Assembly (NCBI RefSeq): GCF_004365815.1
Contig: NZ_SODD01000008.1
Coordinates: 35,177-67,176, forward strand
DNA length: 32,000 nt
Direction: 5' to 3'
Origin: Breznakia blatticola
Lineage (GTDB): Bacteria > Bacillota_I > Bacilli_A > Erysipelotrichales > Erysipelotrichaceae
Shown here: positions 6,672-30,969 of the stretch, one piece after another
Position numbering within the stretch: position 1 is the stretch's first letter
Layout: each line of letters starts with the position of its first letter
Made by a program: the position numbers and the translations under genes
The notes under the pieces: generated by a model
Databases searched by the model: none
Told to the model about the DNA's origin: nothing
Seen by the model: the letters and a program-made list of their open reading frames with translations, nothing else

Positions 6672-6694
6672 AGTGAATGAAAGGAAGTGTTGAA

Positions 6695-7363
6695 ATGGAC
6701 GAGCAAATGAAAATCCTGTGGAACACAGGAGCTACGGGGGATGTAACTACACTAGTTGCCCAAATTAAAAAGGGATTGGATATTAATTATCAAAATCCAG
6801 AAGGAAGAACCATTCTCATGCGTGCTGCTAAAAGAGATTATAAAGATGTCGTACGAATTTTAATTGATAATGGTGCAGATGTAAATTTAAGAGACAATCA
6901 AGGAAGAACTGCATTGATGGGAGCAGCAAAAAAAGGTAATAAGACCATCGTAAAGAAATTAATGGAAGCAGGAGCGGATATTAATATTCAAGATTGCAAG
7001 GGACGCACAGCATTGATGCGTGCAGCATTCTTGGGGTATGATCGTGTAATTCGTGAATTATTGAAAGGTGATTTAATGCTCGATTTACGTGATGAAAAAG
7101 GAAGAACCGCATTAATGGAAGCATGTCTAGCGTATAAACAAGATGCAATTGATTTATTGCTAGTGGCAAAAGCAGATGTAAACTTACAAGATAATAATGG
7201 TTGTACTGCATTAATGCGCGCAGCATATGCTGGATATGCAGGATTAGTTGAAAAATTACTTGATTATGGTGCAGATAAAAATATTGAAGATGAAGATGGA
7301 AAGAAAGCCATCAATTATGTTCGAGAGTCATTAAAAAGTGAACTTGAACCGTTATTAGGATAG
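6695..7363 (+). CDS. Ankyrin-repeat protein (about 6 ANK repeats, cytoplasmic)
   Basis: 33-aa periodic G(R)TALM.AA..G....V..L...GAD.N..D repeated about six times. The ATG at 6695 has an AGGAAG RBS 7 nt upstream; the ATG at 6677 has none. Confidence 0.85.
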   Translation: MDEQMKILWNTGATGDVTTLVAQIKKGLDINYQNPEGRTILMRAAKRDYKDVVRILIDNGADVNLRDNQGRTALMGAAKKGNKTIVKKLMEAGADINIQDCKGRTALMRAAFLGYDRVIRELLKGDLMLDLRDEKGRTALMEACLAYKQDAIDLLLVAKADVNLQDNNGCTALMRAAYAGYAGLVEKLLDYGADKNIEDEDGKKAINYVRESLKSELEPLLG

Positions 7364-7374
7364 GGGGACAAAGT

Positions 7375-9459
7375 ATGAGAGATTATAAATCAAGTGAAAT
7401 ACGTAATGTCGCCGTGTTAGGACATAGTGGTTCAGGAAAGACTTCTATTTTAGAAGCGATGCTTTATTTTACAAAAGCAAGTGATCGTTTTGGAAAAACA
7501 AGTGAAGGAAGTTCACTTATTGATTATGACAGTGAAGAAATTGCGAGAGGAATGTCGATTTATACATCGATTGTTCCAATTGAGTGGCAAGATTATAAAA
7601 TTAACTTCTTAGATACTCCAGGATATCTAGATTATATTGGAGAACAAGAAGCAGCAATGGAAGTTTGTGATAATGCATTAATTATTGTGAGTGCAAAAGA
7701 TAAAGTACAACCAGGAACGATTAATGCGTGGGAAGCTGCAAAGGATAAAAAGATTCCAGCAATTTTCTTTATTAACAAACTAGATGAAGATCATACATCA
7801 TTTGATGAAACATACAATGCATTGCGTGATACATTTGGGAAAAGTGTTATTCCTTTTGAGATGCCAATTTTAGAAAATGGAGAAGTAATTGGTTCAATTA
7901 ACATTTTAAGAGATAAAGTGTGGTACTTTAAAGGTGAAAAGGCTAGTCGTGATACAGCATATGATGTACCTGATGACTATCGTGAAATCGTTGATACATA
8001 TAAAGCACAAATTGCAGAAACTGTAGCAATGGGTGATGATGAATTGATGGAAAAATACTTTAGTGGAGAAGAATTCACTGAAGCACAACTTACAAAAGGT
8101 GTTCGTATTGGTGTTCGTAATGGGGATATTGTTCCTGTATTTAGTGGTTCAGCAACGTTATCAGTTGGTATTGAACGTTTAATGGACCTTATTGTGAAGT
8201 ATTTTCCAACGTATGGTGAGCAAGGTACAATTGTTCTGACTGACACAAAAACAAATGAATTAGTGGAACTACAAACAGCAGAAGATGAAGCGTTAAGCGC
8301 ACTTGTATTTAAAACAATTGTTGACCCATTTGTTGGTAAAATTTCGTTCTTAAAGGTGTTAAGTGGTACACTGACAAGTGATACGGCAGTATACAACCCG
8401 AAAAAAGATGAAATGGAGAAAATCTCACAAATCTTTATTATCAAAGGAAAGCACCAAACTGCTGTAGGAAAACTATTTACAGGTGATATTGGAGCGGTAA
8501 GTAAATTACAATTTACACAAACGAATGATACACTTTGTGATAAAGGAAAACATTATGTGGCAGATCCAATACCATTTACAAAAGGACTACTTGGTCATGC
8601 AATTCGTCCAAAGACAAAAGCGGATGATGATAAAGTAAATGGAGCACTTCAAAAAGTACTCGAAGAAGATCAAACAACATGGATCGATAACAATAAAGAA
8701 ACGAAACAAATTGTTCTTTATGGAGTTGGAGAACAACACTTTGAAGTGATTGTTAATAAAATGAAAAATCGCTATAAAGTCGATGTTGAATTAAGTGATC
8801 CAAAAGTACAATATCGTGAAACGATTAAAAAGAAAGTGGAAGCCGAAGGTCGACACAAGAAACAATCTGGTGGTCATGGACAATTCGGACATGTATTTAT
8901 TGAATTCTTACCGAATCCAGATGAAGAAGAAATGGTTTTTGAGACACGAGTTGTTGGTGGAGCAGTGCCAAAAGGATATTTCCCAGCAGTTGAAACAGGG
9001 TTACGTGAAGCTATGGAAACTGGAGTACTGGCTGGATACAAAATGGTAAACACAAAAGCGGTTTTATATGATGGTAAATATCATGATGTCGATTCAAATG
9101 AATTATCATTTAAACTTGCTGCAAGTTTAGCTTATAAAGATGGTATTCCTAAAGCAAACCCAGTATTATTGGAACCAATTATGAGTTTGAGAATTTCAGT
9201 TCCTGATGAATACACAGGAAATGTAATTGGTGAAATCAATAAACGTAGAGGAATGATTATTTCGATGGATCTTGAAGGAGGAAAACAGGTAATTACAGCA
9301 ACTGCACCATTAGCAGAAATACTTGACTTCCCAACGATACTACGTGCTTGTACACAAGGTCGTGGACATTATACGCAAGAATTTGAACGCTATGATGAAA
9401 TACCAAATGCAATGAAAGATCAAATCATTGATAAGGCACGAAAAGCAAAAGAAGCATAA
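7375..9459 (+). CDS. EF-G paralogue, EF-G2-like translational GTPase
   Basis: 694 aa. G1 GHSGSGKT, G3 DTPGY (Tyr in place of the catalytic His of DTPGH), G4 NKLD. The domain IV region DGKYHDVDSNELSFKLAAS is EF-G-like. It is not in an rpsL-rpsG-fusA-tuf context. Confidence 0.85.
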   Translation: MRDYKSSEIRNVAVLGHSGSGKTSILEAMLYFTKASDRFGKTSEGSSLIDYDSEEIARGMSIYTSIVPIEWQDYKINFLDTPGYLDYIGEQEAAMEVCDNALIIVSAKDKVQPGTINAWEAAKDKKIPAIFFINKLDEDHTSFDETYNALRDTFGKSVIPFEMPILENGEVIGSINILRDKVWYFKGEKASRDTAYDVPDDYREIVDTYKAQIAETVAMGDDELMEKYFSGEEFTEAQLTKGVRIGVRNGDIVPVFSGSATLSVGIERLMDLIVKYFPTYGEQGTIVLTDTKTNELVELQTAEDEALSALVFKTIVDPFVGKISFLKVLSGTLTSDTAVYNPKKDEMEKISQIFIIKGKHQTAVGKLFTGDIGAVSKLQFTQTNDTLCDKGKHYVADPIPFTKGLLGHAIRPKTKADDDKVNGALQKVLEEDQTTWIDNNKETKQIVLYGVGEQHFEVIVNKMKNRYKVDVELSDPKVQYRETIKKKVEAEGRHKKQSGGHGQFGHVFIEFLPNPDEEEMVFETRVVGGAVPKGYFPAVETGLREAMETGVLAGYKMVNTKAVLYDGKYHDVDSNELSFKLAASLAYKDGIPKANPVLLEPIMSLRISVPDEYTGNVIGEINKRRGMIISMDLEGGKQVITATAPLAEILDFPTILRACTQGRGHYTQEFERYDEIPNAMKDQIIDKARKAKEA

Positions 9460-10343: not shown

Positions 10344-10420
10344 GGCGGTCGTGGTGAAGTGGTTAACACAGCGGGTTGTGGTCCCGTCATGCGTGGGTTC
10401 AAATCCCATCGGTCGCCCCA
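10344..10420 (+). tRNA. tRNA-His (anticodon GTG), CCA encoded
   Basis: Hand-folded cloverleaf. There is an extra 5' G (G-1) pairing with C73, which is the His identity element. The anticodon stem GCGGG/CCCGT carries the loop TTGTGGT. The T-arm is GTGGG-TTCAAAT-CCCAT, and the 3' end is CCA. Confidence 0.9.
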
Positions 10421-15668: not shown

Positions 15669-17438
15669 ATGAAATATACAAATGGAAATTATGAAGCATT
15701 TGCTAGACCAAGAAAACCACAAGGAGTTGATGATAAGTCTGCACATATTGTAGGTTCAGGTTTAGCAGGACTTGCTGCAGCGGTCTTCTTAATTCGTGAT
15801 GGTCAAATGAAAGGTAGTAATATTCATATTTATGAAGAGTTAGGTATCAATGGTGGTTCTTTGGATGGAACATTTATACCACACGATGGATTTGTTGTCC
15901 GTGGTGGACGTGAAATGGAAAATCACTTTGAGTGTTTATGGGACTTATTTCGTTCTGTGCCATCACTAGAAGTAGAAAATGCATCTGTACTTGATGAGTT
16001 TTACTGGTTAGATAAAGATGATCCAAACTCTTCAAATTGTAGAATTATCGAAAAACGCGGACAAAGAGTTACTGATGATGGTATGTTTACTTTAACAAAA
16101 CAAGCCCAAAAAGAGATAGTTGAATTATTTATGACAAGTGAAGATCGTCTAATTGGTAAGAAAATAGAAGATGTATTTACAGATGAATTCTTCGCATCGA
16201 ATTTCTGGATTTACTGGAGTAGTATGTTTGCTTTTGAAACATGGCATTCAGCTATTGAAATGCGTCGATATATTATGCGTTTTATTCACCATATTAAAGG
16301 ATTACCTGATTTCACTGCATTAAAATTCACAAAGTATAATCAATATGAGTCATTAGTCAAACCATTGTTGAGTTACTTGGAAAAAGAAGGTGTACATTTT
16401 GAGATGAATACACGAGTGGATAATGTACTTGTTGATATAACAGAGCATAAAAAAGTCGCAAAAATCTTAAAGCTTGTTAAGGATGATGAGCCTATGGAAG
16501 TTGTACTATCAGAAAATGATTTAGTCTTTGTAACAAATGGTTCTATCACTGAAAGTTCAACTCAAGGTGATCACAATACACCTGCACGAATCACACATGA
16601 ATTAGGTGGAAGTTGGAAGTTATGGAAAAACTTAGCAAGTCAAAGTAAAGAGTTTGGTAATCCGGATGTGTTCTGCGAAAATCTACCAGAAAAAAGTTGG
16701 TATGTTTCAGCAACAGTAACGTTTAAAAACTTTGATATCGAACCATATTTAGAACGTTTGACACACCGTAAAATGCGCTCAGGCAAAGTGGTGACTGGTG
16801 GAATTGTCACAGTGAAAGATTCAAATTGGATGTTATCATTTACAATGCATAGACAACCACACTTCAAGGAACAAAAAGACAATGAAAGCGTTGCATGGGT
16901 ATATGCGCTATATTCTGGAATTCCAGGAAACTACATCAAAAAACCAGTTGAAGAATGCTCGGGTAAAGAAATTGCTGCGGAGTTGATGTATCACTTAGGT
17001 GTACCAGAAAATCAAATTGATGCGATGGTAAATAGTTGTGTCTCAATTCCAGTGTATATGCCATTTATCACTTCGTATTTTATGGTACGTAAAGAAGGTG
17101 ACCGTCCACTTGTTGTACCAAAAGATGCAACGAATTTAGCCTTTATTGGAAATTTTGCGGATACAAAAAGAGATACCGTTTTCACAACTGAATATTCAGT
17201 TCGTACGGCAATGGAAGCTGTATATCAATTACTTGATATTGAACGTGGTGTTCCTGAGGTCTTTGCATCAGCTTACGATCTTCGTGAACTTGCCAATTCA
17301 GTATATTATCTATCAGATAAAAAGAAACTTAGTGAAATGGAATTACCATTTGTTGAAAAGCATTTGGTTAAACATTTCATGAAGAAAATAGATGGAACAT
17401 ATATTGAAGAATTACTTAAAAATGCAAAACTTTTATAA
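15669..17438 (+). CDS. ohyA: Oleate hydratase (MCRA family, FAD-dependent)
   Basis: 589 aa. The N-terminus [13 protein letters not shown]...[21 protein letters not shown] (FAD Rossmann) and [16 protein letters not shown] are typical of fatty-acid hydratases. Confidence 0.9.
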
Positions 17439-18346: not shown

Positions 18347-18608
18347 AATACAAAACAAATACGATGAAAAGAAGAGTAGAGTTTCAAAAGTCTTCATAGA
18401 GAGTCCTGGTTGGTGAAAAAGGATAAGATAAGTCGAACTTGAATATGGTCTTGGAGTAGTACAGTTGAGAGCTTGCTTTAGATTGTACCGTGTGCACCCG
18501 TTAACGTGCTAGAGTTTGATAGAACTTGAAGAGGTTATTGTAGTGATGCAATAATGAACTAAGGTGGTAACACGATGACATTCGTCCTTATGGGTGAATG
18601 TTTTTTTT
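18347..18608 (+). promoter_or_regulatory. T-box riboswitch leader, probable Met (AUG) specifier, with terminator
   Basis: The AGAGAG stem-I motif is at about 18400. A candidate specifier, gaatATGg, is at 18445-18447. The T-box sequence AACTAAGGTGGTAACACG is at 18557-18574. The terminator is a 10-bp stem (18578-18601) plus T8. Confidence 0.8.
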
Positions 18609-18625
18609 ATGATTTTGGAGGATAT

Positions 18626-19660
18626 ATGGAAAAGGTTGTCTTAAAACACATTTCGAAAACGTTTCAAGTAAAAACACATGATGTGCATGCAGTAAAAGAT
18701 GTATCGCTAAGTGTGGATGAAGGCGATATCTTTGGTGTCATTGGATTTAGTGGAGCAGGAAAAAGTACACTTATACGTTGTATCAATTTGCTTGAAAGAC
18801 CAACGAGTGGTGAAGTATGGGTAAATGGGAAAAACTTAATTGAATTACCAGCAAAGCAATTGCGTGAAGAACGTAAGAAAATCGGAATGATTTTTCAACA
18901 TTTCAATCTGATGCGTTCAAGAACGGTTGCACAAAATATTGCCTATCCATTAAAAGGTAGTGGAAAAAGTAAAGCTGAAATCGAAGCAAAAGTAAGTGAA
19001 TTACTTGAACTTGTAGAATTGTCAGATAAAGCAAAAGCATATCCAAGTCAACTGTCTGGTGGACAAAAACAAAGAGTTGCCATTGCAAGAGCGCTTGCAA
19101 ATGATCCAAGCATCTTGCTTTGTGATGAAGCAACAAGTGCACTGGATCCACAAACAACACAATCGATATTGCAATTACTAAAAGAAGTTAATGAGAAATT
19201 AAAACTTACAATTGTTATCATCACGCATGAAATGGCGGTTGTAAAACAAATTTGTAATCGTGTTGCGATTATGGAAAATGGAGTCGTGGTTGAACAAGGA
19301 AATATTGTGGATATCTTCAGTAACCCACAAAATCAGACAACAAAGAATTTCATTAATACGACAACTTCGATTAATGAAATATATGAAATGATTGAAGAAG
19401 AAAATCCACTTGTTAAGTTGGAAGAAAATGAAACGATGCTTCGTTTAACATATGGTTCAAGTAACACCGATGAACCAATCATGTCAGAATTGGTTAACCA
19501 ATTTAATTTAGAATTTAATATCGTATTTGCGAATGTTGAAGTACTAAGTGCAACTCCAATTGGAAATCTCGTTGTAAAACTAAAAGGTGAAACCAAAGAT
19601 AGACAAGATGCTATTTCATATATCGAAAAACAAGGTGTGAAAGTTGAGGTGTTAAATTAA
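18626..19660 (+). CDS. metN: Methionine ABC transporter ATP-binding protein
   Basis: The ATG at 18626 follows a GGAGGA RBS. Walker A GFSGAGKST, signature LSGGQKQR, Walker B LLCDEATSALD, and a C-terminal NIL domain. Confidence 0.9.
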   Translation: MEKVVLKHISKTFQVKTHDVHAVKDVSLSVDEGDIFGVIGFSGAGKSTLIRCINLLERPTSGEVWVNGKNLIELPAKQLREERKKIGMIFQHFNLMRSRTVAQNIAYPLKGSGKSKAEIEAKVSELLELVELSDKAKAYPSQLSGGQKQRVAIARALANDPSILLCDEATSALDPQTTQSILQLLKEVNEKLKLTIVIITHEMAVVKQICNRVAIMENGVVVEQGNIVDIFSNPQNQTTKNFINTTTSINEIYEMIEEENPLVKLEENETMLRLTYGSSNTDEPIMSELVNQFNLEFNIVFANVEVLSATPIGNLVVKLKGETKDRQDAISYIEKQGVKVEVLN

Positions 19661-20397
19661 TGGGAAGTCAAATTTCACAATTCTTTGAATTGATCATTGG
19701 TAAAGTTATTGAATTAATTGATCATATACTACCAATGGAATTTATGAATGATCCAATTATGGTGAAAGAATTAGTTAATGCAACTTGGGAAACCATATGG
19801 ATGTTACTTGCATCTGGTATTGTTGCATTATTACTTGGACTACTTGTTGGAGTGATTGTGACAGTTACAAACAAAGATGGCTTGTTGGAAAACAAAATTA
19901 TCTACTTTGTATTTGATAAATTTATCAATTTCTTTAGAGCAGTACCATTTGTTATTTTGATTCCATTGATGATGGGATTATCAAGAGTACTTGTAGGTAC
20001 GGCGACAGGGACCACAGGAATGCTTGTGACACTTGTTTTTGGAATTATTCCATTCTTTGCTAGACAAGTACAAAGTGCATTGGCAGATGTGGATTCTGGA
20101 TTGATTGAGGCAAGTATCTCAATGGGGGATTCCCCCTTACAAATTATTACAAGAGTTTACATTAAAGAAAGTATTCCAGGATTGATACGTTCTATATCGA
20201 TGACACTTGTTTCTGCATTAGGACTTACAGCAATGGCAGGACAAGTTGGTGGTGGAGGATTAGGTGCCTTCGCTATTCGTTATGGATATCAAAGACATGA
20301 ACTTGATGCAACATGGACAACGGTAGTCATTATATTAGTTATTGTTGTAATTATTGAATCAAGTGCAAATTATTTCGCAAAAAAATTAACACATTAA
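19660..20397 (+). CDS. metI: Methionine ABC transporter permease
   Basis: Its start overlaps the metN stop. It is polytopic, with an EAS-type loop (EASISMGDSPLQ). Confidence 0.9.
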   Translation: MGSQISQFFELIIGKVIELIDHILPMEFMNDPIMVKELVNATWETIWMLLASGIVALLLGLLVGVIVTVTNKDGLLENKIIYFVFDKFINFFRAVPFVILIPLMMGLSRVLVGTATGTTGMLVTLVFGIIPFFARQVQSALADVDSGLIEASISMGDSPLQIITRVYIKESIPGLIRSISMTLVSALGLTAMAGQVGGGGLGAFAIRYGYQRHELDATWTTVVIILVIVVIIESSANYFAKKLTH

Positions 20398-20423
20398 AAG
20401 TGTATCTTAAGGAGGATAAGAAG

Positions 20424-21260
20424 ATGAAAAAAATTATTGCAAGCTTAATTGTTGGTTTATTGGTTTTAACAGGATGTGGAGGATCAGATGATAGTGCTGG
20501 CGCTGATGACAAACTAGAAAAGATTACAGTTGCAGCAAGTGCGACACCACATGCTGAAATTTTAGAAGAAGTAAAAGAAGATTTAAAAGAAGCAGGATAT
20601 GAATTAGAAGTAAAAGTATTTGATGATTACATTTTACCAAATACAGTTGTAGATGATGGAGAAATTGATGCAAACTTCTTCCAACATGAACCATACTTAA
20701 TCAGTTTTAATGAAGATAATGGAACAGACTTAGTAGCTGTAGCAAATATTCACATTGAACCTTTAGGAATTTATGCAAAGGATAATGAAAAAACAAACTC
20801 AGATTTTTCAGTTGCTGATGTAAAAGAAGGAGCAGTTATTACTATTCCAAATGATCCATCAAATGAATACCGTGCATTACTATTGTTACAAGAAAAAGGC
20901 ATTATCAAAATCAAAGATAGCAACAACTTAAAATCAACAGTTGTAGATATTGTAGAGAATCCAAAAAATGTAGAAATCAAAGAAGTGGAAGCAGCTGGAA
21001 TTCCAGCAACACTACCAGATGTTGATTACGCTGTAATTAATGGAAACTATGCACTTACAAATAAAGTTGAAGATAAACTAATTGTTGCAGAAACAAAAGA
21101 TTCAAAAGGTGCATTAAAATATGCAAACATCCTTGCAGTTAAAAAAGGAAACGAAGACAGTGCAAAAACAAAAGCTTTAATTAAAGCGTTACACACAGAA
21201 AAAGTTAAAACATTCATTGAAGAAACATTTGGTGACTTAGTCATTCCAGCTTTTGATTAA
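20424..21260 (+). CDS. metQ: Methionine-binding lipoprotein (MetQ/NlpA family)
   Basis: The ATG at 20424 follows an AAGGAGG RBS. The lipobox is LLVLTGCGG, and NlpA-family motifs are present (FQHEPYL, NDPSNEYRALLLL). Confidence 0.9.
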   Translation: MKKIIASLIVGLLVLTGCGGSDDSAGADDKLEKITVAASATPHAEILEEVKEDLKEAGYELEVKVFDDYILPNTVVDDGEIDANFFQHEPYLISFNEDNGTDLVAVANIHIEPLGIYAKDNEKTNSDFSVADVKEGAVITIPNDPSNEYRALLLLQEKGIIKIKDSNNLKSTVVDIVENPKNVEIKEVEAAGIPATLPDVDYAVINGNYALTNKVEDKLIVAETKDSKGALKYANILAVKKGNEDSAKTKALIKALHTEKVKTFIEETFGDLVIPAFD

Positions 21261-22125: not shown

Positions 22126-24225
22126 CTAATCTGCTACTGAGTATAATAAATCTCCATATGATGGGAATGGCCAGTATTCTTTAGAACAGTTTTGTTCGAT
22201 TTCATCAACCACTGCACGTAAGTCTACCATTTTTGCTAATACACTTTCACCATAGTATGTCGCGTTTTTAATGTTATCGCTAATGCCGTTTGCGGCAACA
22301 ATATCATCTGCTAATAACTCAGTTTTTGTGTATACTTCATGGATTAACTTGTTTAGTTTTTTAATCATAGCTTCTTCGGTAATGCAATCTAAATCAGCAA
22401 CAATTGATTTTTTTACAGCGACAGTTTCACTTAAGTCCTTAATGTATTTTAAGACGGAAGGGATAATGTTTTTCTTTGCCATATTTACCATTGTTTCTGC
22501 TTCAATATTGATTGCTTTTGAGTATTCTTCAATCAATACATCCATACGAGCTTTCATTTCATTGACAGTATAGATATGATTTGAAGTAAATAGTTCTACA
22601 TTTTTAGCATCCATATAGTGAGGAAGTGCTTCATATGTAGTGCGTAAGTTTAATAGTCCACGATTTTGTGCTTCAACTACCCAACTATCATCATATCCAT
22701 TTCCATTAAAGATGATGCGCTTGTGTTTTGTGAATGTTTCTTTGATTAAATCATGTAAATCTTTTTGAAGATCACTAGATGCTTCTAAGCGGTCTGCAAA
22801 TTCTTTAAATGCTTGTGCAACAATCGTATTTAACATAATGTTTGGACAAGAAATAGATAGTTGAGAACCAAGCATACGGAACTCGAATTTATTCCCTGTA
22901 AAGGCAAAAGGGGAAGTACGGTTACGATCCGTATTGTCTTTTTTAAATTCTGGTAGTGAGTCAACACCAATTTCGATCTTTCCAGCACTGTGGTTACATT
23001 GAGGCTTATCTTCAATGATACATTCAATGATGGCTTCTAAATCTGTACCTGTGAAAATTGAGATAATTGCAGGAGGTGCTTCTTGTGCCCCTAAACGGTG
23101 ATCGTTTCCAGCACTTGCAACTGAGATACGCAATAAATCTTGGTTTTCATCAACTGCTTTAACTAAAGCTGCAAGAACCAACAAGAATTGTGCATTTTCT
23201 TCAGGTGTTGCACCTGGCTCTAATAAGTTTTCACCTTGATCAGTAGCCATTGACCAGTTGTTGTGCTTTCCTGAACCATTTATCCCTGCGAATGGTTTCT
23301 CGTGAAGTAGACAAACAAGTCCGTGACGAAGTGCCACTTTCTTCATAATTTCCATTGTTAGTTGGTTTTGGTCTGTAGCAACATTGGTAAGCGTGAAGAT
23401 TGGTGCAAGCTCATGTTGAGCAGGAGCAACTTCGTTGTGTTGCGTTTTGGCAAGAACACCAAGTTTCCATAATTCAACGTTTAAGTCATCCATAAAACGA
23501 GCAACTTTTGGTTTTAATACACCAAAGTAATGGTCATCAAGTTCTTGTGTTTTTGGGGGACGAGCTCCATATAAGGTGCGTCCTGTATAAATTAAATCTT
23601 TACGTTTATCCCATAGATTTTTATCAATAAGGAAGTATTCTTGTTCAGCACCAACGGTTGTATTCACTCGTTTTACATCGGTTTTGCCAAAAAGTTTAAG
23701 AATACGTAACGCTTGACGATTCAGTAATTCTTGTGATTTCAGTAATGGTGTTTTCTTATCTAGTGATTCTCCATTGTATGACATGAACACACTAGGAATA
23801 CAAAGAATTCCTTCTTTGATAAACACACATGAGGTTGGATCCCAACCTGTGTATCCACGAGCTTCATATGTATCACGTAGTCCACCATTTGGGAAACTTG
23901 AAGCATCAGGTTCACCCTTGATTAATTCCTTACCAGAAAATTCCATAATGATACTACCATCTCCACTAGGGGTAATGAATGCATCGTGTTTTTCTGCTGT
24001 AATTCCTGTCATTGGTTGGAACCAGTGTGTGTAATGCGTTGCACCATTTTCAATTGCCCAGTCTTTCATGGCAGTTGCAATCGTACTCGCACATTCTGGA
24101 TCAAGCGGTTTTCCTTCTTCAATCGTTGCTTTATATTTCTTGTAAATGTCTTTAGGCAGTTTTGCCTTCATACAACGATCGTCGAAAACCTTCGATCCGA
24201 AAATCTCAGTAACGTTAGTTCTCAT
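22126..24225 (-). CDS. glnN: Glutamine synthetase type III
   Basis: 699 aa. The N-terminus FGSKVFDD..M...LPKDIYKKY and THYTHWFQPMTG are typical of GSIII. The catalytic-region motifs look intact to me (GAEQEYFLID, HNEVAPAQHE, NGSGKHNNWS); I did not check the C-terminal motifs. Confidence 0.9.
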   Translation of the reverse strand: MRTNVTEIFGSKVFDDRCMKAKLPKDIYKKYKATIEEGKPLDPECASTIATAMKDWAIENGATHYTHWFQPMTGITAEKHDAFITPSGDGSIIMEFSGKELIKGEPDASSFPNGGLRDTYEARGYTGWDPTSCVFIKEGILCIPSVFMSYNGESLDKKTPLLKSQELLNRQALRILKLFGKTDVKRVNTTVGAEQEYFLIDKNLWDKRKDLIYTGRTLYGARPPKTQELDDHYFGVLKPKVARFMDDLNVELWKLGVLAKTQHNEVAPAQHELAPIFTLTNVATDQNQLTMEIMKKVALRHGLVCLLHEKPFAGINGSGKHNNWSMATDQGENLLEPGATPEENAQFLLVLAALVKAVDENQDLLRISVASAGNDHRLGAQEAPPAIISIFTGTDLEAIIECIIEDKPQCNHSAGKIEIGVDSLPEFKKDNTDRNRTSPFAFTGNKFEFRMLGSQLSISCPNIMLNTIVAQAFKEFADRLEASSDLQKDLHDLIKETFTKHKRIIFNGNGYDDSWVVEAQNRGLLNLRTTYEALPHYMDAKNVELFTSNHIYTVNEMKARMDVLIEEYSKAINIEAETMVNMAKKNIIPSVLKYIKDLSETVAVKKSIVADLDCITEEAMIKKLNKLIHEVYTKTELLADDIVAANGISDNIKNATYYGESVLAKMVDLRAVVDEIEQNCSKEYWPFPSYGDLLYSVAD

Positions 24226-24240
24226 AGTTCTCCTCCTGAA

Positions 24241-24286
24241 TAAACAAAAAGGGTGCCGTAGACAAAAATATATCTACAGCACCCTT
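24241..24286 (-). terminator. Intrinsic terminator inside the glnN 5' leader (attenuator)
   Basis: On the minus strand: AGGGTGCTGTAGA-tatatttttg-TCTACGGCACCCT (13 bp, one G-U) followed by TTTTTGTTTATT. It ends about 10 nt before the AGGAGGA RBS of glnN. Confidence 0.7.
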
Positions 24287-24291
24287 GCTGT
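24276..24291 (-). promoter_or_regulatory. Hexaloop hairpin overlapping the terminator 5' arm (ANTAR-substrate-like half-site)
   Basis: On the minus strand: ACAGC[AAGGGT]GCTGT, a 5-bp stem whose hexaloop has A at position 1 and G at position 4. I could not find a convincing partner hexaloop hairpin upstream. Confidence 0.3.
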
Positions 24292-24329
24292 TACCATGAG
24301 TTTAATCAATAATTACGTATAAGTCAAGG

Positions 24330-24422
24330 TTAATTTGAATCTTTTTTACCAATATCACTTACTTTGATTGCAATGTAAAGTAACAACATCAGTTGAATAA
24401 CATCATAGATAAATTTGTACAT
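24330..24422 (-). CDS. Candidate 30-aa hydrophobic small protein (MYKFIYDVIQLMLLLYIAIKVSDIGKKDSN)
   Basis: An AAAGGAG RBS lies 7 nt upstream of the ATG. It is not in the ORF track because it is under 60 aa. It sits between the divergent promoter region and the glnN attenuator. Confidence 0.4.
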   Translation of the reverse strand: MYKFIYDVIQLMLLLYIAIKVSDIGKKDSN

Positions 24423-24627
24423 GATAAGCTCCTTTCATTTACTCATATGATTGTGTTTCTAATACAAGTGTAGCACATACATATAAAAGAGTTAACCCTA
24501 CAGGATTCCTTGATAGAAGAGCTAGATGTAAAGTATATGTAAATTACAAACAATTTTTAGTAATCTATTTTGCATAATGTAAAAAGTGTGATATGAATAG
24601 AAAGAGTTACAAGTATGAAATCTTTTA

Positions 24628-24656
24628 TTGACAGGAATTTAGTTGTAAACTATAAT
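24628..24656 (+). promoter_or_regulatory. Consensus sigma-A promoter of the GS-like/ANTAR/pyrG operon
   Basis: TTGACA, 17 nt, TATAAT, both hexamers perfect. The leader before the RBS is only about 20-25 nt. Confidence 0.65.
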
Positions 24657-24688
24657 CATAAAATAGATTTTGAAGAAGGAGCGTGACT

Positions 24689-25957
24689 ATGGAGCTACAA
24701 GATATTTTGCAATACATTCAACAGCATCATGTGAAATTTGTGCGACTCGCTTTTTGCGACATTTTTGGAACCCTCAAAAATCTCTCAATTAATGCAGAAG
24801 ACTTCGAAGATGCAACAACATTTGGAGTTAACTTGGATGCTTCTATAGTTAACGGTTTTATGAACTTCAAAAAAACGGATTTACTCTTGTTTCCTGATTT
24901 GGAAACCATGACAGTACTGCCTTGGCGCAGCAATCATGAGAAAGTTGTTCGTTTTTTTTGTGATATTCGTCATGTGGATCACCGTCCATTTGAAGGTGAT
25001 GGTCGTTATATTTTAAAGCAAGCGATGGAAGCTTGCGAAGCTTATGGATATACACCACGAATTGGAATTGAAAGTGAGTTTTATGTTTTTAAAAATGATG
25101 AAGATGGAAAACCGACAAATCTTCCAGTCGATGATGCATCGTATTTAGATGTAACACCACTTGATAAGTGTGAAAATATTCGTCGTGATGTATGTTTGGC
25201 TCTTGGTGAAATGGGGGTAAAAACGACTCTTTCCTACCATGAAAAAGGTCCGGGACAAAATGTTATTATGTTTCAAAAAGACCATGCACTACCGAGTGCT
25301 GACAATTTTATCACTTTTAAAAATGCGGTAAAAAGCATTGCGTTGGTAAATGATTTGTATGCAAGTTTTATGCCACGTCCAATGGCAAATGAGGCTGGTA
25401 GTGGACTTCGTATTAAAGTGATTTTAAGTAAAAATGATCGGAATATTTTTGATGATGAATTTGAAGTTAATATTCAAGAACAAAGAAGTTTCATCGCTGG
25501 AATATTAAATCGAATTGATGATATGAGTGCATTTTTAAATCCAATACATAATTCATATGAACGTTTAGGACGTGAAAAAGCACCAAAATACATAACGTGG
25601 TCAAAAGAAAATGAAAGTGAATTAATTCGTGTTAGTGAGAAAAATGATGAGTATTCATTTATTACACTACGTTCACCTGATGCAGCATGCAATCCATATA
25701 TTAGCTTTGCTTTATTGTTGTTTGCTGGAGTTGAAGGAATGAAAAATCATGAAGAACTTCATGAAAATACAAAAAGTCCAAGAATGCTACCAGATAGCTT
25801 GAAAGAAGCAATTAAAAAACTGGAGACATCAACGTTTATAAAAACGTATTTAAATGAGAAAACACTTGAGACATTTATTCGTGCCAAAAAAGAAGAAGTA
25901 GAACAAATTGATAAAGAAGCTTCTTTTGCCTTGGATCCATACTTCCGCCTAATTTAG
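24689..25957 (+). CDS. Type-I glutamine synthetase homologue with a degenerate active site (predicted pseudoenzyme or sensor)
   Basis: The ATG at 24689 lies 8 nt after a GAAGGAG RBS; the GTG at 24683 is too close to the RBS. The GS-I fold is clear (GIESEFYVF, SYHEKGPGQN, AGSGLR, NSYERL, RSPDAACNPY), but many canonical ligand positions are substituted (see findings). Confidence 0.85.
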   Translation: MELQDILQYIQQHHVKFVRLAFCDIFGTLKNLSINAEDFEDATTFGVNLDASIVNGFMNFKKTDLLLFPDLETMTVLPWRSNHEKVVRFFCDIRHVDHRPFEGDGRYILKQAMEACEAYGYTPRIGIESEFYVFKNDEDGKPTNLPVDDASYLDVTPLDKCENIRRDVCLALGEMGVKTTLSYHEKGPGQNVIMFQKDHALPSADNFITFKNAVKSIALVNDLYASFMPRPMANEAGSGLRIKVILSKNDRNIFDDEFEVNIQEQRSFIAGILNRIDDMSAFLNPIHNSYERLGREKAPKYITWSKENESELIRVSEKNDEYSFITLRSPDAACNPYISFALLLFAGVEGMKNHEELHENTKSPRMLPDSLKEAIKKLETSTFIKTYLNEKTLETFIRAKKEEVEQIDKEASFALDPYFRLI

Positions 25958-25973
25958 TAGGAGTGGATACAGT

Positions 25974-26540
25974 ATGCCAAGTTGTTTAATTGTATCGAGT
26001 TTGGATAAAAGTTTAGATGCACTGACTAAACTTTTATCAAGTATCGATTTAAAGAAAATAGAATGTGTAAAAAGTGCAACAGAAGCAAGACAGGTTCTGG
26101 CAAAACAAGCATTTGATATGGTGTTGATTAATGCTCCATTATCAGATGAATTCGGACATGAATTGACATTACAAATTACCGAAAACTCTACAAGTGGTGT
26201 CCTTTTTCTGGTGAAAAATGAACTGGTTGATGAACTGAGTAGCAAACTAACAAGACATGGCGTGATGGTTATTGGAAAACCGTTGAATCGTCATATGTTT
26301 ACACAAGCGGTTCGTATGGGATTATCCACACATCAACGCTTGTCACAAGCAGAAAAAGAAAATTTGCGATTACATGCCAAAGTGGAAAATTTAGAATTGA
26401 TCAGTCGTGCAAAATACACACTGATGGAGTATTTAAATATGGGAGAAGCGCAAGCACATCGTTATATAGAAAAGAAAGCGATGGATGCTAGAATTTCCAA
26501 AGAAGAAGTTGCGAAAGATATATTAAAAACATATGGTTAG
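25974..26540 (+). CDS. ANTAR-domain RNA-binding antiterminator with an AmiR-like pseudo-receiver domain
   Basis: 188 aa. The C-terminal ANTAR pattern is [43 protein letters not shown]. The N-terminal receiver-like fold lacks the acidic residues. Confidence 0.85.
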
Positions 26541-26551
26541 AAGGAGTTAAG

Positions 26552-28159
26552 ATGAGAAAATACATATTTGTTACCGGTGGAGTAGTAAGTGGATTAGGTA
26601 AAGGGATAACCGCAGCAAGTTTAGGACGTATGTTGAAAGAACGTGGGTTGAAAGTCATCGCACAAAAGATGGATCCATATATCAATGTGGATTGTGGAAC
26701 CATGTCACCATACCAACATGGGGAAGTGTTTGTTACCGATGATGGTGCTGAAACCGATTTGGATTTAGGACACTATGAACGTTTTATCGATGAAGATCTG
26801 AATCGATTTTCGAATCTAACAAGTGGAAAAGTGTATTGGAATGTATTAAACAAAGAACGTAAAGGTGAATACTTAGGAGATACAGTTCAAGTTATTCCAC
26901 ATATTACACAAGAAATTAAAGATTTTATTTATGCTGTAGGTGATGAAGATGAAGCGGATATTGTCATCTCGGAAATTGGAGGAACAACGGGAGATATTGA
27001 ATCGCAACCATTTTTAGAAGCAATTCGTCAAGTCGGTTTAGAAGTTGGACGTGAAAACGTATTATTTATTCACGTTACACTTGTGCCTTACATTAAAAGT
27101 AGTGGGGAACACAAAAGTAAACCAACCCAACACAGTGTAAAACAACTGCAAAGTTTAGGTATCTCACCAGATATCATCGTTTGTCGTGCAGATGAAGATT
27201 TAGAACCAAGCATCTTACAAAAGATTTCACTGTTCTGTAATGTAAAGCAAGATTGTGTAATTCAAAATAAAACATTACCTGTGTTATATGAAGCACCATT
27301 AATGCTTGAAGAGGCAAACTTCTCGGATATTGTTTGTCGTGAATTGCATTTAAAGACAAAGAAACCTGATGTAAGTGAATGGAAAAATCTAGTCGAACGT
27401 ATTAAACACGTAAATAAAGAAGTACATATCGCTTTAGTTGGTAAATATGTAAAACTACATGATGCCTATTTATCTGTTGTTGAAGCATTAAAACATGGTG
27501 GATATGAAAATGATGCGGATGTAAAAATTACATGGGTAGACAGTGAAGCACTAACGGATGAAAACTGCTCGAAATATTTCGAAGGTATGGATGGAATTAT
27601 CTTACCTGGTGGCTTTGGTGGCCGTGGAATTGAAGGAATGATTGCAGCATGTCACTATGCACGTGTGAATAATATTCCATATTTTGGTATTTGTTTAGGA
27701 ATGCAAATTGCATCCATTGAGTTTGCACGTTATGGATTAGGCTTGAGGGATGCAAATTCAAGTGAGTTTACACCTGCAGGTGCAAACAATGTAATTGACT
27801 TGATGGAAAGTCAAGTTGATGTGACTTCTAAAGGAGGAACGATGCGTTTAGGTGCATATCCTTGTCATATTCAAGCAAATAGTATTTTACATAAAGCATA
27901 CCAAAATGATGATATTAGTGAACGTCACCGTCATCGCTATGAGTTTAATAATGCATATCGTGAACGATTCCAGGAAAATGGAATGCATATTACTGGGACA
28001 AGTCCTGACAATATGCTAGTGGAAGCGGTAGAGTTTAGTGATAATAAATTCCATATCGGTGTACAATATCACCCTGAATTTAAATCACGTCCAAATAAAG
28101 CACACCCGCTGTTCCGTGAGTTCATAAAAGTTGCAGTAGTAAACAAGCATTTAGTATAA
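26552..28159 (+). CDS. pyrG: CTP synthase (glutamine-hydrolysing)
   Basis: 535 aa. [19 protein letters not shown], and the GATase triad region GICLGMQ...HRHRYE. Confidence 0.95.
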
Positions 28160-28314
28160 GCAAAAGATTCATAAAATATTCTTATTTAAAATGGATGAAA
28201 CGCATGTAGTTCGTGTGTATTTGTCCATTTTTTATTGTTGAGCGTTAACGTTTCTTCTATATACGCATAATTTCACATGTGATATATTAATTGTGTGTTA
28301 GAGGGGATTACATT

Positions 28315-30969
28315 ATGAATCAATTTGAAAACATCTTAGAATTTAGAGGGACATGGAGGTTATATCAAAAACGAGTGTTGAATAATTTTGATCAACATGC
28401 TACAGACAAGAAAATACATATTGTTGCTGCTCCTGGATCAGGAAAAACAACTGTTGGTATAGAAATGATAAAGAGATTAGGTCAAAACTGTCTAATCTTA
28501 ACTCCTAGTATCACTATCAGAGAACAATGGCTTGCTAGAGTGGAAGATGTTTTTTTATGTAACAAAAATGATGCGAAAGATTATTTATCTAATACTCTTT
28601 CATCATATAAACCAATTACGGCAATTACATATCAAGCAATGCATAGTATATATGCAAAAGAAACAAGTGAAGAGAATATAAAAGATATTGAGATTGTTAA
28701 TTTGTTGAATGAACACAATGTAAAAGTCATCTGTCTAGATGAAGCACACCATATGCGTAATGAATGGGTAAAAGCACTTGAACAAATTATTTCGAAGCTT
28801 GAAGATGTTCAACTTATATCATTAACCGCAACACCACCATATGATGCGAATTTTAATGAATGGAAACGATATATCGATTTGTGTGGACCAATTGATGAAG
28901 AAATATTTACACCTGAGTTAGTAAAGGAAGAGAGTTTATGCCCACATCAAGATTATGTGTACTTTAACTGGCCAACAAAAGAAGAAAGAGCAGCAATTGA
29001 AAAACATAATAAACAAGTTTTACTGGCTAAAGAAGAACTGATGAACTCACCTGCGTTATTTGAACTTGTAAAAACACATCCTGCATTGACAAACCCACAA
29101 GATTGTTTGGATTCGTTGCTTGAAAATCCCGCATATTTATATGCTTTGATTTTGTATATGGAAGAAAAGAAGATTGTATATCCTAGTATGTTAAGTCAAG
29201 CGTTATCAGTGAAAAAAAGAAAACTGCCTACAGTATCCATCAAATATTTAGAGATACTTATGCAGGGTATCCTATTTCACGATTTATCAAGTTTTAATGC
29301 AAACGATAACAAGGTTGAAACGTTGCGAGCAATTTTAAAAAAGTATGGATGCATATATCGGAATGAAGTACGAATGCTGACAAATGAGAACATTAATAAA
29401 TCGTTAATTAATAGTAAAGGAAAACTTGAAAGTATAAAGAAAATCGCATTAGCTGAATATCATAATTTAGGTGAGCAACTTCGTATGTTGATTCTCTGTG
29501 ATTTTATTAAAAAAGAATCTTTAGAATTGATTGGTAGTGGAACCATGAATCAAAGCATTGGGACGGTACCTGTTTTCGAAGCGTTACGCACACAAAACAC
29601 ACAGATGAAACTATCGATTCTTAGTGGTAGTATCATTGTTTTACCCAAAACTACAGCAGTTTCTATTTGTAAGGCTCTTATAGATATGGGATATGAAGCA
29701 CATATGATACAGTTAAACGTAGATGAATATGTTCGAATCAATAGCAATGCGGATAACGGGGTGTTGGTCAAATGTGTAACTGATGCATTTGAACAAGGAG
29801 AAATTCAGATTTTGATTGGTACTAAGGCACTACTTGGAGAAGGTTGGGACTCACCTTGTATTAATTCTTTAATTTTGGCTTCATTTGTTGGTTCATATGT
29901 TTCTAGTAATCAAATGCGAGGACGCGCAATTCGAAAAGATTCAATGCATCCAGATAAAGTAAGTAATATTTGGCATTTGGTGTGCATAGAACCGAAATCG
30001 AGTATACATGATATTTTTTATGATCCTTACACCTCATATGATTTGCAAATGTTAAAACGACGCTTTGCGACGTTTTTAGGTGTTCACTATACCAAACCAC
30101 TTATTGAAAGTGGTTTTACAAGGTTGAGTTACATTCAGGAGTATGGGAAAGATTTGAATAAAAACACAATCACAAAAATAAATAATCAAATGTTAGATGC
30201 ATCAACAAAACGCGAAGAATTACGAGATCGTTGGAATGAAGCGTTGGTTTGTATTAGTGAGCAAAATCCTGTTGAAGATGTTTTAGAACTTGAAGTAGAG
30301 ATGTTAAAAAAGAATTATGTATTTGCAAACCATTGGCTATTCATTGTATGTACAATCATTTCTTCATTTGTAATGCAGTTTGTACGAGGAGTATCTTTAA
30401 AATTAGAGCAAAATGTATTTGGAGTCATTGGTTTATTTGTCATCTTTGTTTTTCTTATTTTTGTGTTGGATATCGGATTATCGAAACTTTTAGCGTATAT
30501 TACACCACAACACACAGTAAAAAAAGTAGGACAAGTAATACTTGCTACACTAGAAGATTTGAATATAGTTAGTCATGAAAGTAAATATGTACGAATCAAA
30601 GACGTAAAAGGAACAGGAGTGATGTTAGTATATCTAGAAGGTGGAAATGCAAAAGATAAGCATTTGTTTTCTACATGTATGGAGGAGTATTTTTCCAGTA
30701 TTGATAATCAAAGATATATTATTGTACGCAAAGGCTTTAAAAATGCATTAAATAAGTATTTTGCAGTTCCTGAGATTTTTGCGAAACGGAAGCAAGACGC
30801 ACAAATATTTACATCACATATAAAACGCGTTCTTGGTCTATGTGAGTTAGTCTATACAAGAAATGCAGAAGGGCGAAAAATGTTATTAAAGGCACGTGGA
30901 AAATGTTTCGGGTTTCGAAATGAAAAAATGGTTGACTCTAAACGTAAAGTTCTTGGTAAGTATGAGTAA
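28315..30969 (+). CDS. SF2 (DEAH) helicase-family protein with a C-terminal two-helix membrane hairpin and an extra C-terminal domain
   Basis: The ATG at 28315 lies 7 nt after a GAGGGGA RBS. Motif I AAPGSGKT, Ia LILTPSITIREQW, II DEAH, III SLTATP, V/VI LLGEGWD...QMRGRAIR. It then has TM helices WLFIVCTIISSFVMQFV and VFGVIGLFVIFVFLIFVLDIGL, followed by about 165 aa. Confidence 0.8.
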   Translation: MNQFENILEFRGTWRLYQKRVLNNFDQHATDKKIHIVAAPGSGKTTVGIEMIKRLGQNCLILTPSITIREQWLARVEDVFLCNKNDAKDYLSNTLSSYKPITAITYQAMHSIYAKETSEENIKDIEIVNLLNEHNVKVICLDEAHHMRNEWVKALEQIISKLEDVQLISLTATPPYDANFNEWKRYIDLCGPIDEEIFTPELVKEESLCPHQDYVYFNWPTKEERAAIEKHNKQVLLAKEELMNSPALFELVKTHPALTNPQDCLDSLLENPAYLYALILYMEEKKIVYPSMLSQALSVKKRKLPTVSIKYLEILMQGILFHDLSSFNANDNKVETLRAILKKYGCIYRNEVRMLTNENINKSLINSKGKLESIKKIALAEYHNLGEQLRMLILCDFIKKESLELIGSGTMNQSIGTVPVFEALRTQNTQMKLSILSGSIIVLPKTTAVSICKALIDMGYEAHMIQLNVDEYVRINSNADNGVLVKCVTDAFEQGEIQILIGTKALLGEGWDSPCINSLILASFVGSYVSSNQMRGRAIRKDSMHPDKVSNIWHLVCIEPKSSIHDIFYDPYTSYDLQMLKRRFATFLGVHYTKPLIESGFTRLSYIQEYGKDLNKNTITKINNQMLDASTKREELRDRWNEALVCISEQNPVEDVLELEVEMLKKNYVFANHWLFIVCTIISSFVMQFVRGVSLKLEQNVFGVIGLFVIFVFLIFVLDIGLSKLLAYITPQHTVKKVGQVILATLEDLNIVSHESKYVRIKDVKGTGVMLVYLEGGNAKDKHLFSTCMEEYFSSIDNQRYIIVRKGFKNALNKYFAVPEIFAKRKQDAQIFTSHIKRVLGLCELVYTRNAEGRKMLLKARGKCFGFRNEKMVDSKRKVLGKYE

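Follow-up and report, generated by a model that had tools for sequence, protein, structure and literature searches.

In Clostridium saccharobutylicum NCP262, the glutamine synthetase (GS) gene glnA is paired with nitR, and passages of PMC6316151 that cite Stutz 2007 put forward the NitR protein as an antiterminator of the GS and glutamate synthase (GOGAT) genes. In Clostridium thermocellum, the ANTAR gene Clo1313_2030 lies beside the type I-alpha GS (GSI-alpha) gene Clo1313_2031 and a GOGAT cluster, and three type III GS (GSIII) genes are present (PMC4676874, PMC9888227). ANTAR motifs ahead of nitrogen genes were reported in 2012, and the canonical ANTAR target consists of two hairpins, with P1 placed 5-12 nt upstream of P2 (Ramesh et al. 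2012); in the crystal structure of EutV with RNA, both ANTAR domains of the dimer sit on one hexaloop, and the minimal target is a single hexaloop (PMC8934654). No account of how NitR senses nitrogen was found in the literature searched. Here we analysed a locus of this kind in Breznakia blatticola, seen through a window of 32 kb onto its genome (the whole stretch of DNA under study, from contig NZ_SODD01000008.1), in which the GSIII gene glnN faces a gene for a GS-I-like protein, a NitR-like receiver-ANTAR gene and the CTP synthase gene pyrG. We propose, with a probability of about 0.55, that this module exerts nitrogen control by transcription attenuation, the GS-fold pseudoenzyme acting as sensor and the NitR-like ANTAR protein as antiterminator of glnN. 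The elements of the module are as follows (window coordinates).

22126 to 24225, minus strand: glnN, GSIII of 699 aa, the proposed regulated target (Pfam GSIII_N, Gln-synt_C and Gln-synt_C-ter)
24239 to 24286, minus strand: intrinsic terminator and U-tract of the glnN leader (scan, folding energy)
24276 to 24291, minus strand: candidate antiterminator hairpin ACAGC-AAGGGU-GCUGU (sequence, fold, covariance model)
24299 to 24327, minus strand: glnN promoter, TTGACT-17-TAAACT (promoter scan)
24628 to 24656, plus strand: sigma-70 promoter of the GS-like/ANTAR/pyrG operon, TTGACA-17-TATAAT (12/12 match)
24689 to 25957, plus strand: GS-I-like gene, GSI-alpha fold, 422 aa, the proposed ligand sensor (Pfam Gln-synt_N and Gln-synt_C)
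25974 to 26540, plus strand: NitR-like receiver-ANTAR gene, 188 aa, the proposed antiterminator (Pfam ANTAR and Response_reg)
26552 to 28159, plus strand: pyrG, glutamine-dependent CTP synthase (domain and family matches)

A GS-like protein predicted to be inactive

The start of the GS-like gene was placed at ATG 24689, which gives 422 aa and agrees with the NCBI record, a B. blatticola entry of 100% identity; the alternative start at GTG 24683 (424 aa) was rejected, an exact-sequence look-up of its product having found nothing. When the protein was aligned to the structures of Methanosarcina mazei GS and other GSI-alpha enzymes, a check that the earlier note had proposed, catalytic residues proved to be lost: three of the six metal ligands (E129, E131, E212, E220, H269 and E357) are replaced, by E220V, H269R and E357T, and further substitutions are R339E, N264A and a lysine for the Asn or His of position 271. 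E327 aligns to a lysine, yet a glutamate stands one residue earlier, and the position is ambiguous. The residues E129, E131, E212, D50, Y179, G265, R321, R344 and R359 are retained. As judged from this alignment, the metal and adenosine triphosphate (ATP)-phosphate sites are damaged and the amino-acid (glutamate/glutamine) pocket is largely retained. The earlier claim that most metal, ATP and glutamate ligands are substituted thus holds for half of the metal ligands, R339 and position 271, and fails for the glutamate/glutamine residues, most of which are kept.

The overall fold is that of the family. The phmmer match to M. mazei GS covers residues 6-408 with E = 4e-88, and the AlphaFold2 model (predicted local distance difference test, pLDDT, 83) shows the GSI-alpha two-domain fold with a template modelling (TM) score of 0.91 to the same enzyme; its structural neighbours include GS-GlnR peptide complexes, GSI-alpha being the class with solved complexes of GlnR peptides and of GlnK1. 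Against TIGR00653 (type I glutamate-ammonia ligase), by contrast, the protein scored 309.1 bits, below the cut-off of 429.15, and none of the ncbifam models was matched at its cut-off. The ratio of nonsynonymous to synonymous substitution rates (dN/dS) against an 86%-identical orthologue is 0.065, indicating purifying selection, a rough value because dS is saturated (above 1). Taken from its residues, the GS-like protein is probably a catalytically dead pseudoenzyme.

Constant pairing with the ANTAR gene and repeated loss of catalytic residues

Relatives were collected by a contig scan with the single protein, which yielded two true relatives and an unrelated gammaproteobacterial GS (L003), and then by a scan of metagenomes with the alignment of the ANTAR family, which yielded 80 loci. 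Pairing was counted over loci with more than 400 nt upstream, including those fetched earlier. A GS-I-like gene was directly upstream on the same strand in 74/74 ANTAR loci, and the ANTAR gene was directly downstream of all seven sampled GS homologues. In the relatives, GSIII is often divergent upstream of the pair and pyrG is often downstream, and no other candidate partner gene was conserved beside the ANTAR gene in the loci compared.

Of the 59 distinct partner GS, 35 have the full set of six metal ligands together with the four arginines that were checked. This share of about 60% with all metal ligands identifies the pair as the known clostridial glnA-nitR type, of which the dead GS is a recurrent variant. 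In the remaining 24 partners one or more metal ligands are missing, the patterns of loss numbering about ten and the surrounding motifs being well aligned; examples are E129R/E212K/H269K, E129R/E212S/E220I/R344Y, D50N/R339N/E357Q/R359I and E131Q/E212L/G265R/H269F. Parsimony on a neighbour-joining tree requires at least six independent ligand losses. The amino-acid substrate is held by R321, G265 and E131, and these residues hardly vary among the partners; the acidic ligands are often exchanged for Lys or Arg. The repeated loss of catalysis with the pair kept would fit a GS selected for binding a ligand and a partner, its catalysis being dispensable where another GS exists. On these comparisons, the GS-like protein is probably the nitrogen sensor partner of the ANTAR protein.

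Two other explanations bear on this part of the model. The first is that the ANTAR protein antiterminates glnN on a signal from PII, a nucleotide second messenger or a direct metabolite, while the GS-like protein has an unrelated structural or residual role and happens to share the operon. It would be in line with passages of PMC10783516, which describe the ANTAR protein NasT under the control of cyclic di-GMP as well as NasS, and with a fused amtB-PII gene in the locus of Intestinibacter bartlettii (L007). We regard it as unlikely, because the pairing is without exception and was kept through at least six independent losses of catalysis, because the dead GS is under purifying selection, and because no other partner gene is conserved at this place in the loci compared. 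The second explanation takes the GS-like protein as an enzyme with altered chemistry, such as a metal-poor gamma-glutamyl ligase or an amidase-like enzyme, that stands beside the ANTAR gene only through a shared nitrogen operon. The intact fold, the retention of E129, E131, E212, R321, R344 and R359, and the existence of GS-family members with other substrates (gamma-glutamylputrescine synthetase, glutamate-methylamine ligase) would all permit this; however, different residues were lost in different lineages (e.g. E129R/E212K/H269K versus E357Q/R359I), which does not fit one new chemistry, acidic metal ligands often became Lys or Arg, and the protein falls below the cut-off of every ncbifam model, which together make this explanation quite improbable.

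Whether dead or intact, the ANTAR-paired GS-I proteins show QNE, or in a few QSE, instead of the QHE of canonical GSI-alpha (position 219). Position 264 is other than Asn in almost all of them, and in all aligned ones the E327 flap is one residue shorter. As far as the alignment goes, these features are a family signature of ANTAR-paired GS-I.

A pseudo-receiver ANTAR protein

The second gene of the pair was matched by Pfam ANTAR (E = 7.8e-14) and Response_reg (3.2e-7). Its receiver reads LIVSS in place of the DD pocket and LINAP at the phospho-acceptor, where Asp is replaced by Asn, and K102-P103 is kept; the lack of a phospho-acceptor Asp, which the earlier note had pointed out, is therefore confirmed, with SS for DD in addition. 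The 120 relatives make up a compact family of proteins about 190 aa long. They have S/T plus A/S at the acidic pair and retain the Lys-Pro, and their INxPLxD(D/E)FG loop is invariant; the phospho-acceptor position is Asn in 120/121 family sequences. The Asn pseudo-receiver is, in this alignment, a family-wide trait and not a local oddity.

In the AlphaFold2 model (pLDDT 94), the receiver fold is followed by a long helix (residues 106-154), and three helices make up the end. With this model, the best Foldseek match was RNA-bound EutV 6WW6 (TM 0.82), followed by Rv1626 and AmiR (TM 0.66 for AmiR). EutV contacts its RNA through E160, Y164, M172, N173 and R175 (PMC8934654), and in a by-eye alignment E158, M170, D171 and R173 of the ANTAR protein fall on RNA-contact positions given there, and the aromatic position (Y164 in EutV) is taken by His162. 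The contact positions E158, His162, M170 and R173 are invariant or nearly so among the relatives.

The glnN leader as a candidate switch

The proposed target, glnN, matches the Bacteroides fragilis GSIII structure 3O6X with E = 1e-188, and every catalytic motif is identical, in agreement with its earlier description as an intact-looking GSIII. Its leader contains an intrinsic terminator, the stem of which (24286 to 24249, minus strand) has 16 pairs by scan, 14 of them contiguous, with 7 G-C pairs and a 6-nt loop, followed by the tail UUUUUGUUU. The fold has an energy of -27.1 kcal/mol (z = -8.8 against shuffles). From the terminator end to the glnN ribosome-binding site AGGAGGA there are 13 nt, and the ATG is at 24225. 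The terminator announced in the earlier note as lying just before the ribosome-binding site is thus real; the 13 bp given for it are to be replaced by 14 contiguous pairs, or 16 when extended.

Ahead of the terminator lies the hairpin ACAGC-AAGGGU-GCUGU, a 5-bp stem under a hexaloop whose first and fourth nucleotides are A and G (A1/G4). It sets in 8 nt past the -10 box, which is at or a few nt from the predicted 5' end of the glnN transcript. Loop and 3' arm of this hairpin serve at the same time as the opening 11 nt of the terminator 5' arm, so that the hairpin and the terminator are mutually exclusive; since the hairpin alone folds at only -7.1 kcal/mol, against -27.1 kcal/mol for the terminator, termination would be the default and a factor would be required to hold the hairpin. 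The hairpin agrees at 11/13 positions with the EutV target consensus AGCAANGRRGCUY (PMC3369931), and it has the properties of a canonical P2 (Ramesh et al. 2012), namely an A1/G4 hexaloop overlapping the terminator 5' arm. When the window was scanned with the hairpin covariance model, the glnN leader (22.4 bits) was the only significant match; a match of 13.6 bits at 25475-25494, inside the GS-like coding region, was set down to chance, with the loop AAAGAA and no terminator after it. Searching the glnN leader against Rfam gave no family at the gathering threshold or with E up to 10, and the matches to miRNA and snoRNA families, which fell on the terminator hairpin, were discarded as spurious.

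Within the 457 bp of the divergent intergenic region between glnN and the GS-I-like gene, there is also a hydrophobic 30-codon open reading frame (ORF), MYKFIYDVIQLMLLLYIAIKVSDIGKKDSN, at 24422 to 24330 on the minus strand, with the ribosome-binding site AAAGGAG. It was rejected as a leader peptide of the switch because the conserved glnN promoter lies 3' of it and Erysipelotrichaceae MTC7 (L001) has no counterpart. In Breznakia sp. PF5-3 (L002), the GS-like gene and the glnN promoter are set apart by an inserted 205-aa ORF (7314-7931, minus strand) that resembles a GNAT acetyltransferase in sequence appearance, and the promoter and hairpin-terminator start directly past its stop codon.

Hairpin-terminator units in relatives and the putative regulon

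The same succession of promoter, hairpin and terminator is found 5' of glnN in L001, L002, L004, L006 (an Erysipelotrichia metagenome-assembled genome), L007, L038, L046 and L088. The first five of these, in which the flanks of the units are unrelated in sequence, also have a glnN promoter TTGACA-17-TAAACT/TAAAAT/TACAAT at the equivalent position. A structure-based motif screen of all fetched loci (768 kb, all of it from loci carrying an ANTAR gene) returned 43 hexaloop and overlapping-terminator units, about 30 of them distinct, in comparison with 3.5 in dinucleotide shuffles. Apart from glnN, the genes behind such a unit are amtB, asnB, glmS, gdh, pyrG and, in archaeal-type GOGAT clusters, the one for the GATase_2 subunit; some loci have it before the GS-like/ANTAR operon as well. 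A hairpin-terminator lies between the ANTAR gene and pyrG in L047, L048, L061, L063 and L072-L074; units at amidotransferase genes (pyrG, glmS, asnB) and gdh elsewhere are at L071 3722, 9047 and 3592, L044 9588 and L025 5268, and one L071 locus has at least three copies. The units at pyrG, glmS, asnB and gdh suggest that the regulon spans both the making and the use of glutamine. One further unit (L039, 558-603, minus strand) is promoter-proximal, has the loop AAAGGA and lies 5' of a spoVG homologue; it is doubtful: a false positive, or else a regulon member that was not expected.

In most instances the -10 box of a sigma-70 promoter ends 7-12 nt 5' of the hairpin (about 21 nt in L007). A second hexaloop hairpin (P1) was searched for 5' of every instance, and none was found beyond two weak 3-bp A1/G4 candidates (L010, L046). 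The canonical dual-hairpin model was rejected for this unit family, because no P1 fits between promoter and hairpin; a target of one hexaloop is in accord with the EutV-RNA crystal structure (PMC8934654). The loop follows the consensus AARGGY, and the closing C-G pair is invariant or nearly so, while the stems covary: over 28 hairpin instances 95% of cells pair and 4/5 pairs show double changes (score 0.68 versus 0.21 in shuffles), and over 30 terminator instances 94.8% of cells pair and 10/14 pairs are compensatory, the percentages being inflated since the instances were picked by a pairing screen. Despite that selection, the stem switches between instances (ACAGC/GCUGU, UGAAC/GUUCA, AGAC/GUCU, AUAAAC/GUUUAU) remain informative, and the unit is conserved with covariation from Erysipelotrichia to Peptostreptococcaceae.

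A leader free of protein control, working as a constitutive partial attenuator, a metabolite-sensing RNA or a site of 5' reiterative transcription (which governs Bacillus pyrG, a gene in the motif set here) and resembling an ANTAR target by coincidence, would accord with a short element of one hairpin and no Rfam family match, but is the least probable of the alternatives, because a nearly invariant AARGGY loop and C-G pair on covarying stems suggest a sequence-specific reader, the loop obeys the ANTAR A1/G4 rule, all instances come from loci with an ANTAR gene (the only loci screened), and known metabolite aptamers are larger than a hairpin of 16 nt. In the reading preferred here, the ANTAR protein probably overrides the glnN terminator. 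Control of read-through into glnN by this protein, as put forward in the earlier note, is well supported by an A1/G4 hairpin that opposes the terminator and is conserved with covariation.

Proposed mechanism

In the model, a strong unregulated promoter would supply the GS-fold pseudoenzyme, the pseudo-receiver ANTAR protein and CTP synthase. By default, the glnN transcript from its own promoter would form the 14-16 bp terminator after about 45 nt and stop before the coding region. Under induction, a free ANTAR dimer would bind the hexaloop hairpin in the first 16 nt or so of the transcript; the hairpin held in this way would occupy the terminator 5' arm, no terminator could form, and GSIII would be made. 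For the GS-like protein, which keeps the pocket (E131, G265, R321) and not the metals, we propose glutamine as the ligand, with glutamate, ATP or 2-oxoglutarate as other possibilities. Under nitrogen-replete conditions, its ligand-bound form may hold the ANTAR pseudo-receiver, both the contact and the sign of regulation being conjectural; precedents for such sequestration are AmiC-AmiR, NasS-NasT and the glutamine-bound Bacillus subtilis GS with TnrA/GlnR. Without pre-loading on a P1, a high constitutive level of ANTAR protein may be needed to catch the hairpin within the 30 nt or so that are transcribed up to completion of the terminator.

Several points weigh against this reading. In addition to the saturated dS and the inflated pairing percentages given above, about 60% of the partner GS look competent, so that adjacency alone could mean co-regulated metabolism. 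EutV antitermination in vivo requires both hairpins (PMC3369931, PMC8934654). At the position of the EutV Tyr that stacks on G4, the ANTAR protein has His162, with a Tyr two residues on, and the His is family-wide. A view of 32 kb, moreover, leaves room for other GS genes or other ANTAR partners.

A wider proposal, which we put at somewhat less than even odds, is that throughout Clostridia and Erysipelotrichia the nitR-adjacent type I GS would be the nitrogen sensor of NitR (a trigger enzyme), that in at least six lineages, including Breznakia, it may have become a dedicated glutamine receptor, and that the regulon may be read through single 5' hexaloops. Deletion of the type I GS of C. thermocellum reportedly deregulates nitrogen metabolism, going by the title of a 2017 study by Rydzak. 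Nitrogen genes reportedly go up in such a mutant.

The sensor operon and neighbouring genes

The GS-like, ANTAR and pyrG genes are separated by gaps of 16 nt and 11 nt, respectively, each gene has its own ribosome-binding site, and no terminator was found between them. The short gaps and the lack of an internal terminator indicate that they form one operon. Its promoter, TTGACA-17-TATAAT at 24628-24656 (plus strand), is the sole 12/12 match within 6.5 kb, and the perfect consensus claimed for it at the outset was borne out; L001 also has a perfect TTGACA-17-TATAAT, and L002 (18-nt spacer) and L004 (TAAAAT) have close variants. The operon leader of about 25 nt is too short to hold an attenuator. 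The Breznakia clade, made up of the window, L001, L002 and L004, lacks one ahead of this operon; L006, L007 and L066, whose GS keeps its ligands, have one.

Downstream, an 892-aa ResIII/DEAD-type helicase gene with a hydrophobic C-terminal part (28291-30969, plus strand) lies between pyrG and a sortase-like gene. It looks like an insertion in B. blatticola, because pyrG directly adjoins the sortase-like gene in MTC7 (L001). Elsewhere in the window, a T-box leader (Rfam RF00230, 118.6 bits; 18355-18592, plus strand) is directly 5' of a metN/metI/metQ-like ATP-binding cassette transporter operon (18575-21260). An ankyrin-repeat protein of 228 aa with strong Pfam Ank matches is encoded at 6677-7363 (plus strand), just 5' of a gene for an EF-G-like GTPase; the host is a cockroach-gut bacterium. 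An MCRA-family gene (15669-17438, plus strand) and a tRNA gene (10345-10417, plus strand) are both apparently unconnected to the GS/ANTAR module. Members of the MCRA family are commonly annotated as oleate hydratases.

Significance and comparison with known systems

In the literature searched, no dead GS partner, no universal pairing and no set of single-hairpin 5'-terminal targets were described. That the partner GS became a pseudoenzyme again and again while the pair stayed intact is natural-history evidence for a non-catalytic job, and it names a testable sensor. The roughly 30 natural single-hexaloop antiterminators bear on the question raised by the EutV structure, whether one hexaloop is enough for ANTAR antitermination, and would, if the reading is true, form the first such set of ANTAR attenuators in nature. 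The putative regulon (glnN, amtB, GOGAT, asnB, glmS, gdh and pyrG) and its switch could matter for gut anaerobes and for engineering the nitrogen flux of industrial clostridia such as C. thermocellum.

The Breznakia module resembles the clostridial glnA-nitR pair in that a GSI-alpha gene is followed on its own strand by a receiver-ANTAR gene, within a nitrogen context; in some relatives' loci the pair also stands at the end of archaeal-type GOGAT clusters. It differs in that the Breznakia GS, devoid of three of six metal ligands and R339, is judged inactive from its residues, the real enzyme being the divergent GSIII, and in that its sensor operon has no attenuator of its own. With AmiC-AmiR and NasS-NasT it shares a pseudo-receiver ANTAR protein encoded beside a ligand-binding partner, which in those systems sequesters it according to ligand state (PMC3369936, PMC3795266); the Breznakia partner, in contrast, has a GS fold, not a periplasmic-binding-protein fold, and is probably a large oligomer, and the RNA target is a single 5' hexaloop. 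The architecture of receiver, coiled-coil and ANTAR domain, and a target hairpin overlapping the terminator 5' arm, are those of EutV/EutW, whereas the Breznakia system lacks a kinase and a phospho-acceptor Asp and uses one hairpin in place of P1 and P2. On the one hand, the B. subtilis GS acting on TnrA/GlnR is a trigger enzyme in which, as we propose here, a GSI-alpha protein passes nitrogen status to a regulator, and there it is the glutamine-bound GS that binds it; on the other hand, that system joins an active enzyme to DNA-binding regulators, whereas Breznakia is predicted to join a pseudoenzyme to an RNA-binding one.

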